A DNA stretch of 64,000 bases from Candidatus Bipolaricaulota bacterium (GTDB lineage Bacteria; Bipolaricaulota; Bipolaricaulia; RBG-16-55-9; DRXL01). Shown here piece after piece: positions 7,154 through 22,706 of the stretch. Both the position numbers and the translations under genes were made by a program. Position 1 is the first letter of the stretch. Every line of letters starts with the position of its first letter. The stretch spans positions 37,454 through 101,453 of the forward strand of contig JANXCC010000004.1 in NCBI GenBank assembly GCA_025060395.1, written 5' to 3'. The notes beneath the pieces are model-generated. The model did not search any database, was not told the DNA's origin, and was given only the letters and a program-made list of their open reading frames with translations.

Positions 7154-8308
7154 ATGAAACTGACGGCGCAGATCAGCCGCACCGTCTTTTTGTTAGGGAT
7201 TGTCAGTCTATTGAACGATCTTGCAGGCGAGCTGATCATGGCTGTCTTGCCCATCTTTTTGATAGGGCTTGGCAGCGCCGGGTGGGTCGTGGGGCTGATC
7301 GGCGGTCTGGAAGACGCCACAAAAAGTCTTTTGAGTCTCGTCTTTGGGGGTCTTGCTGATAGACTAGGGCGCAAGAAGCCCTTGGTCTTCTTGGGCTATC
7401 TCATCCCGTCGGTCTTTCGCATCGCGTTGCCGTTCTCGACCCATTGGGCGATGGCGCTGGCCTTCCGGGTGCTCGATAGGATGGGCAAAGGGATGCGAAC
7501 CGCGCCACGCGATGCACTCATCGCCGACTCGGTCACGGAAGCAACACGCGGGGCGAACTTCGGCTTCCACCGCGCGATGGATACAGGGGGAGCGCTGCTC
7601 GGCTCAGCGCTCGCGTTTGTCTTCTTCTGGTGGCTCAATCTCCCCGTGCCAGGGATCATTCTCGTAGGCGGGCTGATCTCGGTAGCGTCGCTCATCCCCT
7701 TAGGTTTCGTCTCAGAATCTGTAAGCGCAGCTCAGCGTAGCAAGCTCTTCGAGGGCCTGCGCGAGCTGCCAAAGGCGTTCTATCTGAATCTGCTGGGGAT
7801 GAGCATCTTCGCCTTGGCCAATTTTAGCTATATGTTCTTCTTGCTCAAGGTAAACGCAGCGTATACAGACAAGCTCGCGGTCGGTCTGCCTATAGGAATG
7901 TACGTGCTCTATAACTTCACGTACACGCTCTGTGCGCTCCCCGCGGGGGTGCTCTCAGACAAGATCGGGCGGCGCGCCGTCTTGCTCATGGGGTATCTGA
8001 TATTCGGCATGACGTCCTTGGGGTTTGCGTTTGCGCGGAGTTTAGTGCTCTTTGTGCCGCTTTTTGCGTTCTACGGGATCGCGTATGCGTTCATAGAGTC
8101 CAACCAACGAGCGTTTGCAGCAGATTTGGCGCCGCTGGAGCGCCGTGGCACGGCGCTGGGACTCTTTCATATGTGCATCGGCTTTGGCTCGCTGTTGGGC
8201 AGCTGTATCGCTGGAGTGCTCTGGGAGATCTCACACGCGCTGACGTTCTTCTACGGCGCGGCGCTTGCAGCAGTGAGCCTCGCGTTCTTAGCGGCGCGAT
8301 GGGAATGA
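7154..8308 (+). CDS. MFS transporter
   Basis: 384 aa, about 12 TM. Loop motif GGLADRLGRKKP. TATAAT 7140..7145 lies 8 nt before the ATG and there is no SD. Confidence 0.8.
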   Translation: MKLTAQISRTVFLLGIVSLLNDLAGELIMAVLPIFLIGLGSAGWVVGLIGGLEDATKSLLSLVFGGLADRLGRKKPLVFLGYLIPSVFRIALPFSTHWAMALAFRVLDRMGKGMRTAPRDALIADSVTEATRGANFGFHRAMDTGGALLGSALAFVFFWWLNLPVPGIILVGGLISVASLIPLGFVSESVSAAQRSKLFEGLRELPKAFYLNLLGMSIFALANFSYMFFLLKVNAAYTDKLAVGLPIGMYVLYNFTYTLCALPAGVLSDKIGRRAVLLMGYLIFGMTSLGFAFARSLVLFVPLFAFYGIAYAFIESNQRAFAADLAPLERRGTALGLFHMCIGFGSLLGSCIAGVLWEISHALTFFYGAALAAVSLAFLAARWE

Positions 8309-8331
8309 ATCTGGCTCGGTGCAAAATTTTC

Positions 8332-8340
8332 TGTTACAAT
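8332..8340 (+). promoter_or_regulatory. extended -10 promoter element (TGtTACAAT)
   Basis: TG at 8332..8333 and TACAAT at 8335..8340, 23 nt upstream of the small-ORF ATG. Confidence 0.45.
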
Positions 8341-8362
8341 ACGAGGATGTGAGGAGGCTCCT

Positions 8363-8467
8363 ATGGCCAAGATGAACCCACGATATCGGCCCAAATGGTT
8401 GCGAAAGTTCAAGCGCAAGATGGCTGCGAAGCGTCGTCAGGCCCGTCGTGCCAAGCTCTATCCGTAG
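8363..8467 (+). CDS. 34-aa hyper-basic small protein (possible ribosome/nucleic-acid-associated)
   Basis: Hand translation gives MAKMNPRYRPKWLRKFKRKMAAKRRQARRAKLYP-stop. GAGGAGG lies 5 nt upstream. It is the first cistron after the promoter and is below the track cutoff. Confidence 0.5.
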   Translation: MAKMNPRYRPKWLRKFKRKMAAKRRQARRAKLYP

Positions 8468-8478
8468 GAGGTATCGCC

Positions 8479-8898
8479 ATGCCCAGCGCTACGGTGCGAT
8501 TAGTCGAGGGAATGCAATTTGTAGCGACAAGCGAGAGCGGTCACGCCGTCGTCATGGACACTACGGAAGATATTGGGGGACACGACACCGGCCCGCGCCC
8601 TATGGAGCTGGTGCTCATGGCGCTTGGGGGCTGTACGGGGATGGATGTCGTCTCGATCCTGCGCAAGATGCAGGTCCAGTTTACGCGCTTCGAGATGAAG
8701 GTTGAGGGGGAGCGCGCTGCCGAGCACCCCAAATACTTCACGAAAATCAGAGTGCTCTATAGAATCTGGGGCGATGTCCCTGAAGAGAAGCTCAAGAGAG
8801 CGATTGATCTCTCGTTGGAAAAGTACTGTTCAGTCTCTCACTCGCTCAAGCCTAAAGCCGAGATCTCGTATGCCTATCAGATCAATCCGCCTAGCTAG
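8479..8898 (+). CDS. OsmC-family peroxiredoxin-like protein
   Basis: ATG 8479 with TAGGAGGT. 139 aa with paired Cys motifs LGGCTGMD and KYCSVSHSL. Confidence 0.85.
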   Translation: MPSATVRLVEGMQFVATSESGHAVVMDTTEDIGGHDTGPRPMELVLMALGGCTGMDVVSILRKMQVQFTRFEMKVEGERAAEHPKYFTKIRVLYRIWGDVPEEKLKRAIDLSLEKYCSVSHSLKPKAEISYAYQINPPS

Positions 8899-8910: not shown

Positions 8911-10077
8911 ATGGCTGACGTGGTGATTGTCGACGCGGTGCGCACACCAATGGGTCGGTTCCAAGGGCGGCTTGCTCAATTTAGTTCGACGGAGCTTGGA
9001 GCTGCCGTGATCCGTGCTCTCAAAGAGCGCATGCATCTTAAGGGCGACGAAGTTGATGAAGTCATCATGGGGCAAGTAGTGCAAGCGGGTTCGGGCCAAG
9101 CCCCAGCACGTCAGGCCGCTATTCGGGGAGGCATCTCCCCAAGTGTGCCTGCCGTCACGATCAACAAGGTCTGTGGGTCAGGGCTGAAGGCCGTCATTAT
9201 GGCCGCCCAAGCGATTAAAGCCGGTGATGCTAAGATCGTCATCGCCGGCGGGATGGAGTCGATGAGCAACACGCCCTACTTGCTGAAGGGCGCTCGCGCG
9301 GGCTTTAAGTTTGGCGATCAGAAGCTTGTCGATGCCATGATATATGACGGGCTGTGGTGTGCGTTTGAGAACCAGCATATGGGGATGGCCGCTGAGTACA
9401 CGGCCGCCAAGTCGAGAATTACTCGTGAGGAGCAGGATCGCTTCGCATACGAGAGCCATATGAAGGCCGTGGCGGCGATAAAGGCTGGGAAATTCGCTCA
9501 GGAGCTGATTCCCCTCGAAGGCAAGGACGGTCCGATCACCGAAGACGAGACCCCGCGTCCCGACACGTCGCTCGAGAAATTAGCCAAGCTCAAGCCCGCC
9601 TTTAAAGAAGGGGGCACGGTAACGGCGGGGAACGCTCCGGGGCTGAATGACGGAGCTTCGGCGCTCCTGATTATGTCCAGCGATGAAGCCAAGAAGCGCG
9701 GCTACAAGCCATTAGCAAAGATTGTAGATTACGCCATAGCCGCCACCGAGCCTATTGATCTCTTCTACGCCCCCGTCGAGTCGACCAAGAAGCTCTTAGC
9801 CAAGATGAAGCTCTCTGTGAACGACTTCGATCTTATCGAGGTGAACGAAGCGTTCGCCGCTCAGACGCTTGCCGACGGTAAGGAGTTAGGGTGGGACTGG
9901 GCGCGGGTCAACGTGCATGGTGGAGCCATAGCGCTGGGGCACCCCATCGGGGCCAGCGGCGCTCGGATTCTGACGACGCTCGTGTGGGCCATGCGTGATC
10001 GCCAGGCTCAGTTGGGCCTCGCGACGATCTGCATGGGTGGCGGCATGGGGATCTCCTTGGCGGTGGAGCAGCTATGA
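8911..10077 (+). CDS. acetyl-CoA C-acetyltransferase (thiolase II)
   Basis: VCGSGLKA active Cys, NEAFAAQ, GHPIGASGARIL, CMGGGMG. Confidence 0.92.
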   Translation: MADVVIVDAVRTPMGRFQGRLAQFSSTELGAAVIRALKERMHLKGDEVDEVIMGQVVQAGSGQAPARQAAIRGGISPSVPAVTINKVCGSGLKAVIMAAQAIKAGDAKIVIAGGMESMSNTPYLLKGARAGFKFGDQKLVDAMIYDGLWCAFENQHMGMAAEYTAAKSRITREEQDRFAYESHMKAVAAIKAGKFAQELIPLEGKDGPITEDETPRPDTSLEKLAKLKPAFKEGGTVTAGNAPGLNDGASALLIMSSDEAKKRGYKPLAKIVDYAIAATEPIDLFYAPVESTKKLLAKMKLSVNDFDLIEVNEAFAAQTLADGKELGWDWARVNVHGGAIALGHPIGASGARILTTLVWAMRDRQAQLGLATICMGGGMGISLAVEQL

Positions 10078-10727
10078 AAGATACATGGATCTGGATTCTG
10101 ATCGCAGCTCTGGCCGGTTTTCTCGCGGCCTATCTGCTCCTTCAGCCCAGGCGCGAGCAGCCTATTGATCAGCCTCTTCCAGGACAAACAGCTCCTAGGG
10201 ACTTGCTAGACGAGCCAGCTCAGGGCGCCGCAGAGGCCCCAGTCACGATCATTGAATTTGCCGACTTTAGGTGCGGTTTCTGCGTGAGACATTTCGTTCA
10301 GACTCTGCCCATTCTCTATGAAGAGTACATTCAGACGGGGAAGGTGCGCTATATCTTTCGCAATTTTCCGATCTTAGGGGTGCAGTCGCGCTGGGCTGCT
10401 TTAGCCGCAGAGTGCGCTCACGAACAGGGACGCTTTTGGGAGTATCACGATAAGCTCTTTGCGCTGACCCAGCAAGGCCAGGAGTTTCTGCGCTCGCGTC
10501 TTAAGAGCGTAGCAGCAGAGCTTGGCCTTGACGCGGCCCGGTTTGAGAGTTGCTTGGACTCACAAAAGTATCTTGAAGAAGTGCAAGAAGATCTGGCCCT
10601 AGGCCAGAAGGAGGGCATCACAGGCACCCCAGCGTTCCTCATCAACGGGGAGCTGCTCATCGGGGCACAGCCCATCACGGTCTTTCGCCAGAAGATCGAA
10701 GAGGCGCTGGCTAAGACCGGTCGCTAG
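10074..10727 (+). CDS. membrane-anchored DsbA-family thiol:disulfide oxidoreductase
   Basis: N-terminal TM and a CGFC active site in FADFRCGFCVRH. ATGA overlap with the thiolase stop. Confidence 0.8.
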   Translation: MKDTWIWILIAALAGFLAAYLLLQPRREQPIDQPLPGQTAPRDLLDEPAQGAAEAPVTIIEFADFRCGFCVRHFVQTLPILYEEYIQTGKVRYIFRNFPILGVQSRWAALAAECAHEQGRFWEYHDKLFALTQQGQEFLRSRLKSVAAELGLDAARFESCLDSQKYLEEVQEDLALGQKEGITGTPAFLINGELLIGAQPITVFRQKIEEALAKTGR

Positions 10728-10733
10728 AATCAC

Positions 10734-10762
10734 TTGACAAGCGAGATCCTTCATGCTATACT
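10734..10762 (+). promoter_or_regulatory. near-consensus sigma70 promoter of csp
   Basis: TTGACA 10734..10739, 17-nt spacer, TATACT 10757..10762. Confidence 0.65.
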
Positions 10763-11135: not shown

Positions 11136-11169
11136 AATCGTCCCAGTCCAGGACTGGGACGATTCTTTT
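11136..11169. terminator. hairpin terminator between convergent csp and peptidase genes
   Basis: AATCGTCCCAGTCC-a-GGACTGGGACGATT followed by CTTTTC. Confidence 0.6.
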
Positions 11170-20292: not shown

Positions 20293-21129
20293 ATGATGCG
20301 CATGAATCGGATCTTCGTCATTGTGGGCATTGCCTTGCTCGCGATGGCCGGCTTGGTGCTCTTCTACACAACTCGTGGGCCTCAACCACGCGAGGGCGCG
20401 GTCAGCGTCGTACAGATCTCGGACGATATTCACGTCTATAGCTATAAAGTGCTGAAAGCTTTTCCTCATGATCCCCAAGCGTTTACCCAGGGCTTGGTCT
20501 ACTACAAAGACGATATTCTCTATGAAGGAACGGGAATGTGGGGGGAGTCATCGCTGCGAAAAGTAGATCTTCTGACGGGCAATGTCTTACAGATTCATCG
20601 GCTCCCCAATGAGATCTTCGGCGAGGGGATCACTCTCTGGAACGATACAATCATTCAGTTGACCTGGCAGCACCGCAAGGGCTTCGTCTACGACCGCGAG
20701 ACGTTCACGCTGCTGAGAGAGTTTTATTATCCGACGGAGGGCTGGGGGATCACCCACGATGGCCGGCGCTTGATCATGAGCGATGGCTCGGCGACGCTCT
20801 TTGTCTGGGATCCGGAGACATTTCAAGAAATCGGGCGCATCGAGGTCCGAGACGACAATGGCCCAGTCGTACGCCTGAATGAGCTTGAGTACATTAACGG
20901 GCTGATCTATGCTAACGTCTGGCTGACGGATCGCATCGCGATCATTCAGCCGGAGACGGGGCGGGTCGTGGGCTGGATTGATCTCACAGGGTTGCTTAAG
21001 CCCGAAGATCGTCATGCCCGCGTCGACGTGCTCAACGGCATCGCGTACGATGCCCAGGGCGACCGGCTCTTTGTGACCGGCAAATATTGGCCCAAGCTCT
21101 TTCAGATTCAGATAACAAGGGGGAAGTAA
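20293..21129 (+). CDS. glutaminyl-peptide cyclotransferase (beta-propeller type)
   Basis: FTQGLVYYKDDILYEGTGMWGESSLRKVD, GEGITLWND, EGWGITHDG, NELEYINGLIYANVW. N-terminal TM anchor. Confidence 0.8.
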   Translation: MMRMNRIFVIVGIALLAMAGLVLFYTTRGPQPREGAVSVVQISDDIHVYSYKVLKAFPHDPQAFTQGLVYYKDDILYEGTGMWGESSLRKVDLLTGNVLQIHRLPNEIFGEGITLWNDTIIQLTWQHRKGFVYDRETFTLLREFYYPTEGWGITHDGRRLIMSDGSATLFVWDPETFQEIGRIEVRDDNGPVVRLNELEYINGLIYANVWLTDRIAIIQPETGRVVGWIDLTGLLKPEDRHARVDVLNGIAYDAQGDRLFVTGKYWPKLFQIQITRGK

Positions 21130-21290
21130 AGCCCCTTGATGGCTATTGCCTCTGGGTCAAGTGCTCTGATGGAACTGAGGGCGTCCCATCGCTCGTCTCA
21201 AACCTCTTCCCGCGTTGCTTTGTCGGCCCAGATGCGCTTGCCAAGCAGGGGAATCGACATGAAGGGCGCGGGTAGCTCTGTGAGAAATGA

Positions 21291-22706
21291 TCATCCACCA
21301 CCGCCCACGCCAGCGACAAAGCCCCCTTGCGTCATCTTGCGCACGTCTAAGATCTCGTCGAGCTTCTTTGGAGGCAAGAGCTTCATCTCCAGGACGACTT
21401 CGCGGATCGTCTTCCCTTCGGCCATCGCTCGCTTCACGACTTCGGCAGCCTTGTCGTAGCCGATATACGGGTTGAGCGCCGTCGCTAAGATCGCATTTTG
21501 ATGAGCGAGACGCTCCATCTGCTCGCGATTGGCAATAATGCCCGCAATGCATTTATCAGCGAAGACACGACACGCATTGCTCAAGATCGTGACAGCCTGC
21601 AAGAGATTGTGCGCGATCACGGGTAGAGCGACGTTCAGCTCAAAGTTCCCCGATGCCGCGGCTTGAGTGACGACGACGTCATTGCCCATCACTTGCATCG
21701 CGACCATCATGACGGCTTCGGGGATGACGGGATTGACCTTCCCCGGCATGATCGACGAACCAGGCTGGAGCGCGGGAAGCCGAATTTCTGCGAGGCCTGC
21801 TTGTGGGCCGGAGTTCATCCATCTCAAATCGTTGGCGATCTTGTAGAGCGCCACGGCTAAAGCTTTGAGCGCGCCGCTCAGCTCGACGGCGGTCTCCATC
21901 GTCGCTTGCGCCGCGAAGTGATTGCGCGTCTCTCTGAAAGTGATCTTTGTCTCCTGGGCGAGCGCTTGAGCAATTCTCTGACCAAATTCCGGATGGGTGT
22001 TGATTCCCGTGCCCACGGCCGTGCCCCCAAGCGCAAGTTCATAGAGTCTGGGTAAGACAGCTTCGATGCGCTCGCGTGCGAGCGCAATCTGTGTAGCGTA
22101 CCCGGAAAATTCCTGCCCCAGCGTGATGGGCATGGCGTCCATCAAATGGGTGCGCCCCGTCTTGACGATATCTGAGAATTCTCGTGCTTTCGCTTCGAGA
22201 GCTTTTTGAAGGTGCTCTAACGCCGGGAGAAGCTGCTCGTGCACGGCTAACGCTGCCGAGATGTGCACGCAGGCGGGGATGACGTCATTGGAAGACTGCC
22301 CCAAATTGACGTGATCGTTCGGATGCACGGCTGTTTTATCGCCGCGCTTGACGCCTAAAATCTCGCACGCGCGGTTGGCGATCACTTCGTTGGCGTTCAT
22401 ATTCGTCGAGGTGCCTGAACCCGTTTGGAAGATATCTATGGGGAAGTGTTCATCGAGCTTGCCATCGACGACCTCACGAGCGGCTTGCTCAATGGCTTTG
22501 GCATGGATCTCGTCGAGCAGCTTGAGCTGATAGTTGACTCTCGCCGCGCAGAGCTTGACTAACCCTAACGCCCGGATGAACGTACGAGGGAAGCGTATTC
22601 CGCTGATGGGAAAATTCTCGACAGCGCGCTGAGTCTGCGCGCCCCAGTAGGCGTCCTGTGGGACTTTCACTTCGCCGAGGGAGTCCTTCTCGATGCGATA
22701 GTTCAT
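21291..22706 (-). CDS. fumC: class II fumarate hydratase
   Basis: ATG 22706 with [24 protein letters not shown]... and the [11 protein letters not shown] signature. 471 aa. Confidence 0.95.

Follow-up and report, generated by a model that had tools for sequence, protein, structure and literature searches.

A conserved 34-residue hyper-basic protein encoded upstream of osmC in Bipolaricaulota, a candidate ribosomal mini-protein

A short open reading frame at 8363..8467 (forward strand) of a 64,000-nucleotide stretch of a Bipolaricaulota genome, referred to below as the window, is with near certainty, as judged by comparison of sequences, a genuine protein-coding gene under strong purifying selection. 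We read its product as a new lineage-specific ribosomal (rRNA-binding) mini-protein of one order-level Bipolaricaulota clade, with a probability of roughly 0.55, based on its size, charge, predicted helix, residue-level conservation and the precedent of other such proteins; a nucleic-acid binder outside the ribosome, clearly less probable, is ranked second.

The small gene, its expression signals and its conservation

The window belongs to a metagenome-assembled genome (1.7 Mb, 88% complete, with a bacterial 16S rRNA), and its DNA was detected in hot-spring metagenomes. Public records label its close relatives Candidatus Bipolaricaulota (Acetothermia), and a few of them "Fraserbacteria". The small gene starts with the ATG at 8363 and comprises 34 codons followed by the TAG at 8465-8467 (stop included in the coordinates above); its product, MAKMNPRYRPKWLRKFKRKMAAKRRQARRAKLYP, contains 7 Lys and 8 Arg (15 of 34 residues), lacks Asp and Glu, and has a mass of 4.3 kDa and a pI of about 12. 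The original prediction, made by reading the window alone, had described this frame with its 15 Lys/Arg and no acidic residue, an extended -10 element of its own (TGtTACAAT), a GAGGAGG motif 5 nt before the ATG and a stop codon embedded in the Shine-Dalgarno (SD) sequence of osmC, and coordinates and translation bear out each of these (Table 1), the TAG being the opening of TAGGAGGT. The gene had also been called unannotated; this is correct for the exact sequence of the window's copy, which is absent from the record, and not for near-identical relatives, which are called "hypothetical protein" in public assemblies, one such variant being present on 171 contigs.

Six-frame ORFs of 25-60 aa were collected from the 1.7-Mb genome (n = 13,236). 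A K+R content of at least 40% together with the absence of acidic residues was found in 11 of them, and an SD is present in only 1 of these 11, namely the frame at 8363..8467. The 3' end of the 16S rRNA of the same genome (...GAUCACCUCCUUU / ...CACCUCCUUU) carries the anti-SD CCUCC, so that the SD of the small gene is able to pair with it. Codon adaptation of the small gene is at the 55th percentile, which is uninformative given the weakness of codon usage bias in the genome.

Table 1. Features of the window around the small gene and osmC (positions in the window)
Feature	Position	Strand	Basis
MFS transporter gene, upstream neighbour, outside the unit	7154..8308	+	PF07690, E 9e-35
Weak -35-like element CTGGCT	8311..8316	+	18 nt upstream of the -10 hexamer; TGGC kept in the alignment of 15 relatives
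Extended -10 TGtTACAAT, inside the conserved TTTTCTGnTAcAAT block	8332..8340	+	Sequence; alignment of loci of the window's family
SD of the small gene, GAGGAGG	8351..8357	+	5 nt before the ATG
CDS of the 34-aa hyper-basic protein	8363..8467	+	Intact frame in 24 genomes; dN/dS 0.006-0.09; AlphaFold2 pLDDT 88.6
SD of osmC, TAGGAGGT	8465..8472	+	Overlaps the TAG of the small gene; 6 nt before the osmC ATG at 8479
osmC, true start, 139 aa	8479..8898	+	NF008009 and PF02566 align from residue 4; relatives begin MPSATVR
Thiolase and DsbA-like thioredoxin genes, probably co-transcribed	8911..10727	+	PF00108/PF02803; PF13462

Upstream regions of 15 relatives in the window's family (f1) were aligned. 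In 14 of the 15 aligned loci the TTTTCTGnTAcAAT block hardly varies, TGGC about 18 nt above it is conserved across f1, and every f1 locus has aGGAGG 5-9 nt ahead of its start codon. At locus L006 the TTTTCTGnTAcAAT block lies further upstream, displaced by a G/C-rich leader insert; L004 and L006 carry a G/C-tract hairpin insert between promoter and SD (aggggcagg...cctgcccct and a GAGGG/CCCTC-rich block). The stop of the upstream MFS transporter gene lies 3 nt before the -35-like element. A scan for consensus promoters called none at the small gene, owing to its weak -35. The aligned signals support a small gene that looks separately expressed, with a conserved promoter and SD of its own. A search of public RNA runs found none that contains the locus, and metatranscriptome contigs matching the locus of a relative covered osmC-like sequence only (88% identity, or short conserved pieces), leaving the small gene uncovered.

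Relatives of the small gene were gathered by a six-frame search of 40 related genomes, followed by a profile search of 184 Bipolaricaulota genomes. The gene is in frame and free of stops in 24 of the 184, which fall into three families (f1-f3) of one order. Within the genus of the window, the frame is intact in 11 of 13 other genomes (the two genomes without it are 61% and 85% complete); it was further found in all four f1 genomes outside the genus, in the single genome of f2 and in 7 of 9 genomes of f3. The two f3 genomes that have no copy, G030 and G032, are 88-89% complete, and the gene appears dispensable. The same profile search found no copy in the remaining Bipolaricaulota. Among 1.84 billion protein representatives searched with the profile, only 4 clusters matched, all of the small-gene family, and pattern scans of the genomes of 185,579 species and of JGI metagenomes returned only the same clade or close relatives, with no intermediates.

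Pairwise dN/dS against the window's copy ranged from 0.006 to 0.09 at dS values of 0.6 to above 1.9. Locus L002 differs from that copy by 17 synonymous and 0 non-synonymous substitutions, and of the 40 variable alignment columns 24 are third codon positions. Residues M1, K3, P10, K11, R14, K15, K19, A22 and R25 are invariant family-wide, W12 is nearly so, and Y33-P34 is conserved in f1. Conservation of the frame in relatives, with a dN/dS check, had been proposed as a test of the original prediction; the frame is kept, and under strong purifying selection.

The start of osmC and the genomic setting of the small gene

The ORF track of the window adds 28 spurious codons (8395-8478) to OsmC; these come from the small gene's +2 frame, which is stop-free because of the gene's content of AAG and CGN codons. 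The resulting 167-aa "extended OsmC" from 8395 was rejected as an artefact: the profiles start at the 8479 form, OsmC of all relatives begins MPSATVR, and the spacer that separates the stop of the small gene from the ATG of osmC differs among relatives, with lengths of 9 to 21 nt. Owing to this variable spacer, osmC lies in the small gene's own frame in most relatives, where the stop of the small gene blocks any extension. The original prediction had noted that the track shows an extended OsmC in another frame, and had named a start at 8395 as evidence that would count against the small gene; OsmC begins at 8479. Annotation either misses the small gene or mis-merges it into OsmC, and a correction of the osmC start to MPSATVR is due in Bipolaricaulota that carry the gene.

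Gene order in f1 is always small gene, osmC and thiolase, with various genes upstream; an MFS gene neighbours the small gene in most genomes of the genus and also in G014 and G025. The overlap of the small gene's stop with the osmC SD recurs in most genomes of the genus. In f2 the small gene has neighbours unlike those in f1 and f3. In three f3 genomes (G022, G019 and G028) it stands head-to-head with infB, and a gene for an M32 carboxypeptidase converges on its 3' end, while it follows mutM in G034 and an MFS gene in G025, both also of f3. Between osmC and the small gene of f3 there is a distance of one or several genes, which makes the gene order of f1 look as if this region had contracted later. 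Since the small gene stands alone in f2 and f3, away from osmC, it is not an osmC leader. The f3 copy of G025 (loci L016/L099; contig C4, about 20860-21350, minus strand) has no SD. Upstream, its frame stays open through an ORF for a retropepsin-like aspartyl protease (PF13650/PF13975, E about 2e-6), so that the basic peptide forms the end of a 163-aa open frame, which may reflect a fusion or just a stop codon that is missing.

No terminator-like site was found between the small gene and osmC, or anywhere before 11136 in the window, and the next promoter-like site lies at 10734; from this the small gene probably heads an operon with osmC, the thiolase gene and the DsbA-like gene. The next promoter-like site is near-consensus (TTGACA-17-TATACT with TG, 10734-10762) and, with a strong terminator hairpin at 11136-11164, brackets a next small gene; the two signals likely mark the end of the osmC operon. 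The position of the stop codon inside the osmC SD suggests translational coupling, and coupling of the small gene to osmC is likely on this layout.

Predicted function and alternative readings

AlphaFold2 with the family alignment predicts a turn at residues 6-8 and one helix at residues 11-32, on which W12, F16 and M20 lie on one side and form a narrow hydrophobic stripe, the remaining surface being Lys/Arg. We propose that the gene would be transcribed from the conserved extended -10 and translated from its strong SD into a protein that begins with a short turn (MAKMNPRYRP) and continues as a single long alpha-helix, extremely basic in character, and that this helix would insert into folded RNA; ribosomes ending the small gene in the window's genus would pass on to osmC, then to the thiolase gene and then to the DsbA-like gene. 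The role would be of the same kind as that of bTHX, bS22, bL37 and eL41, in a separate sequence family. Binding to RNA or the ribosome is what we infer from these predicted properties. To our knowledge, essentially all known bacterial proteins of such size and charge are ribosomal.

Pfam and NCBIfam models were scanned with 13 family members at E <= 10, which returned unrelated noise only, save for TIGR00030 (S21p, NCBIfam), matched at E 0.21 by 2 of the 13 members; PF01165 was matched by none. When the family profile was searched against all PDB chains, the best match was eL39 (E 0.44-2.9), followed by a bS21 chain (E 6.9); the protein as encoded in the window had no match among PDB chains at E <= 10. 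The weak echoes in the databases all come from ribosomal proteins: in the PDB from eL39 (E 0.44) and bS21 (E 0.11-6.9), and in NCBIfam from S21p (E 0.21). Profile-profile alignment by hhalign gave P = 0.03 for eL39 (probability 1.6%), P = 0.011 for bS21 (19 columns) and P = 0.11 for bL34 (4 columns). A permutation test, in which the columns of the small-protein family profile were shuffled with composition kept, gave z values of 2.4-3.1 for eL39, 2.4-3.3 for bS21 (local 3.3) and 1.6-2.4 for bL34; the profiles of eL39 and bS21, and that of bL34 in part, were built from sequences typed by hand. Because the likeness to several basic ribosomal helices is equally weak, no membership can be assigned, and with no significant Pfam, NCBIfam, PDB or hhalign match a place in bS22, bTHX, bS21, bL34 or eL39 is not supported.

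The idea that the protein recalls the tiny Lys/Arg-rich ribosomal proteins, put forward in the original prediction, survives as to general type, which is still the best reading, reached by inference; a specific kinship with bTHX or bS22 is not supported. Neither a Pfam or NCBIfam model nor a PDB chain of bS22 was matched at E <= 10, bTHX gave no Pfam match and only noise by tblastn, and the bS21-tail-like stretch noted at the time amounts to a faint echo (E = 0.11, by a distant member), no stronger than that of eL39 or bL34. Against a ribosomal role it counts that the small gene lies outside ribosomal operons, probably heading a stress/metabolism operon in the window's genus, that the gene appears dispensable, and that the protein resembles none of the ribosomal protein families significantly. 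A precedent is found in Flavobacterium johnsoniae, in which a hypothetical protein of 30 aa and pI 12.7 was identified as bS22 only via cryo-EM, as a single helix between h44 and h45 (PMC7797042).

The same composition and single basic helix would suit any polyanion binder, and we regard it as possible, though doubtful, that the protein acts off the ribosome, in nucleoid or RNA compaction, as a chaperone of thermophiles or as a stress-linked factor tied to osmC. The association in the genus with osmC, thiolase and DsbA-like genes rather than translation genes, the origin from hot-spring metagenomes and the absence of the gene from some members of its own clade fit such a role. The osmC link is, however, confined to f1, and the non-basic P10, W12 and A22, with Y33-P34 in f1, are very highly conserved, as would suit a defined binding site better than a general neutralisation of charge; we also know of no bacterial family of nucleic-acid-binding mini-proteins of such size. 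Far less probable still, to the point of being hardly credible, is that the small ORF is only a leader peptide or uORF controlling osmC, or no gene at all with OsmC starting at 8395. The stop codon within the osmC SD in the genus and the open 8395 frame in the window and in L012 could be cited in its favour, but it is the amino-acid sequence itself that is conserved (dN/dS < 0.1), the OsmC profiles start at 8479, the 9-21-nt spacer makes the extension impossible in most relatives, and f2 and f3 carry the small gene without a downstream osmC. A leader as sole function was therefore rejected on the stand-alone copies of f2 and f3 and the dN/dS range; coupling to osmC may be a secondary effect of the small gene.

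A further reading concerns bL34. Canonical bL34 (PF00468) was found above cut-off in 50 of the 184 Bipolaricaulota genomes, of which 47 belong to family f9 and 3 to f4, and is absent from the other 134, every carrier of the small gene included; the same search was positive in 10 of 10 bacterial control genomes. No genome has both genes, and about 110 have neither. An unfiltered search of the six-frame translation of the window's genome with an HMM derived from bL34 of the phylum found no bL34, and the small ORF was not ranked. On the infB tree, only two clades keep bL34, and at least four have lost it. The order rnhB-rpmH-infB is found at 29 of 29 loci in f9, and rpmH precedes an M48 peptidase gene in f4. 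In f3 the small gene of three genera abuts the 5' end of infB and is on the opposite strand; rpmH is co-directional with infB. Searches for a promoter motif shared by rpmH loci and the small gene, and for a "third form" ahead of infB in those families that have neither gene, found none. Weak PF00468 matches in f8 and f10 were set aside as noise, as they lie inside other frames, with G170 as a possible exception: its match at L083 (G170:C28:68-133; E 3.7e-4; ...RNSPSRWKRERRSGFAGRMESSTG...) lies in an 88-aa frame at the start of a contig, and is possibly a decayed rpmH relic or noise, in a family otherwise without bL34. In bacteria at large bL34 is "rarely missing", its frequent loss being known only from tiny symbiont genomes, and neither E. 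coli nor B. subtilis requires it for viability, Mg2+ compensating for its loss (PMC7782861).

The small protein might accordingly be read as the successor of bL34, either as a collapsed, fast-evolved rpmH product, with the N-terminal Y-x-P-basic run and the C-terminal A-K/R-R-R kept and the central HGF...G-R-x-V hairpin deleted, or as a non-orthologous replacement in the bL34 site of the 50S subunit; we hold this to be unlikely, at about the level of the non-ribosomal binder. The distributions are mutually exclusive (50 genomes in f4 and f9 against 24 in f1-f3), bL34 escapes even the unfiltered HMM in the window's genome, and the infB neighbourhood is common to rpmH in f9 and to the small gene in three f3 genera. 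Both proteins are small, have about 40-45% K/R, start M-(A/P)-K (the G014 copy begins MAKRT, bL34 M(P)KRT) and carry Y-x-P and then a basic run near the N-terminus, and when their profiles are aligned globally, the score exceeds that of permuted controls (z 2.2-2.4, p about 0.02-0.03). Unlike bL34, however, the small protein is 10-12 residues shorter, is predicted to be a single helix and lacks the hallmarks HGF and KGR; hhalign aligns 4 columns only, HMM and PDB searches give no bL34 match, and the likeness is no better than that to bS21 or eL39. The small gene is also inverted relative to infB, unlike rpmH, and no intermediate forms were found. Moreover, seven or eight of about ten families have no bL34, among which f5-f8 and f10 also have no small gene, and with five families having neither gene the non-overlap of the two is expected by chance.

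It is more doubtful again, and in our judgement improbable, that the protein is an N-terminally truncated relic of bS21 of which only the C-terminal rRNA-binding helix is left. The f3 member MAKMRLQYMPKWLRKRKRKLAAKRRHRRRMLRKLGR has a bS21B chain as its best PDB match (E 0.11; aligned stretches KPTWARKRKKTAAVKRAHK in the small protein and MPKWLRKRKRKLAAKRRHR in bS21B), TIGR00030 was reached by two members as given above, and hhalign aligned its 19 columns with the P value and local z already quoted. The likeness to the C-terminal helix of bS21 comprises P-x-W-x-RKRK-x-x-AA-x-KR-x-H and a C-terminal (K/R)-L-Y, E. coli bS21 ending in RLY and the small protein in KLYP. None of the bS21 scores is significant, however, the test profile was built from bS21 sequences typed by hand, and the small protein is without the whole N-terminal half of bS21. 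None of the 184 Bipolaricaulota genomes has PF01165 (bS21), so that there is neither a full-length relative nearby nor a complementary pattern of occurrence. The same model is likewise absent from the Thermus, Deinococcus, Thermotoga and Corynebacterium controls. A homologue search with E. coli bS21 as query yielded gammaproteobacterial sequences only, all nearly identical to it.

Significance and comparison with known small ribosomal proteins

Lineage-specific ribosomal mini-proteins such as bTHX, bS22, bL37 and bL38 have so far been found only via ribosome structures of cultured organisms; the small gene is a candidate from comparative genomics alone, in an uncultured, deep-branching, thermophilic phylum. 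If ribosomal, it would extend the known variations of the ribosome by one more family and one more clade. The absence of recognisable bL34 from about 70% of Bipolaricaulota genomes may matter more than the small gene: until now its frequent loss was described for tiny symbiont genomes (PMC7782861), and the Bipolaricaulota without recognisable bL34 (and, in all of them, without bS21) are free-living, with genomes of about 1-4 Mb. Were the small protein the successor of bL34, a minimal peptide would here have naturally taken the place of a core ribosomal protein that lies buried within the 50S subunit.

Sra (formerly S22, rpsV), a small ribosome-associated protein, is encoded two genes from osmC in E. 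coli K-12 (locus L140, 1555826-1557056, in the order sra-bdm / osmC). It does not align with the small protein, contains acidic residues and is restricted to enterobacteria; as the sequences are unrelated, the osmC neighbourhood common to both is probably coincidence. The likeness to eL39 of archaea and eukaryotes extends over 31-34 columns, with MAK..., P-x-W-[IL]-R and AKRR-x-x-RR-x-K shared, and the matches are not significant and need two gaps. The uL23 of the genome keeps a tunnel loop of bacterial length, which occupies the eL39 site, and given this loop and a bacterial organism, an eL39-like protein was rejected.

The reading that we prefer, a lineage-specific ribosomal mini-protein, has its closest counterparts in proteins of the same type. 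Known from Thermus and chloroplasts, bTHX is, like the small protein, a tiny basic protein of thermophiles; a tblastn search of the genome with the Thermus sequence (query typed by hand) returned noise only and left the small ORF unmatched. Still nearer in character are bS22 of mycobacteria and Bacteroidetes and eL41, which have 25-33 aa and a pI above 12, comparable to the 34 aa and pI of about 12 of the small protein. All lack acidic residues and consist of one alpha-helix (predicted for the small protein), and their genes stand alone and for long carried the annotation "hypothetical". Unlike bS22 and eL41, to which it has no detectable sequence similarity, the small protein has its own invariant P10-K11-W12 and A22 signature, and on the evidence of these sequence comparisons it is a family of its own, of a kind already known.
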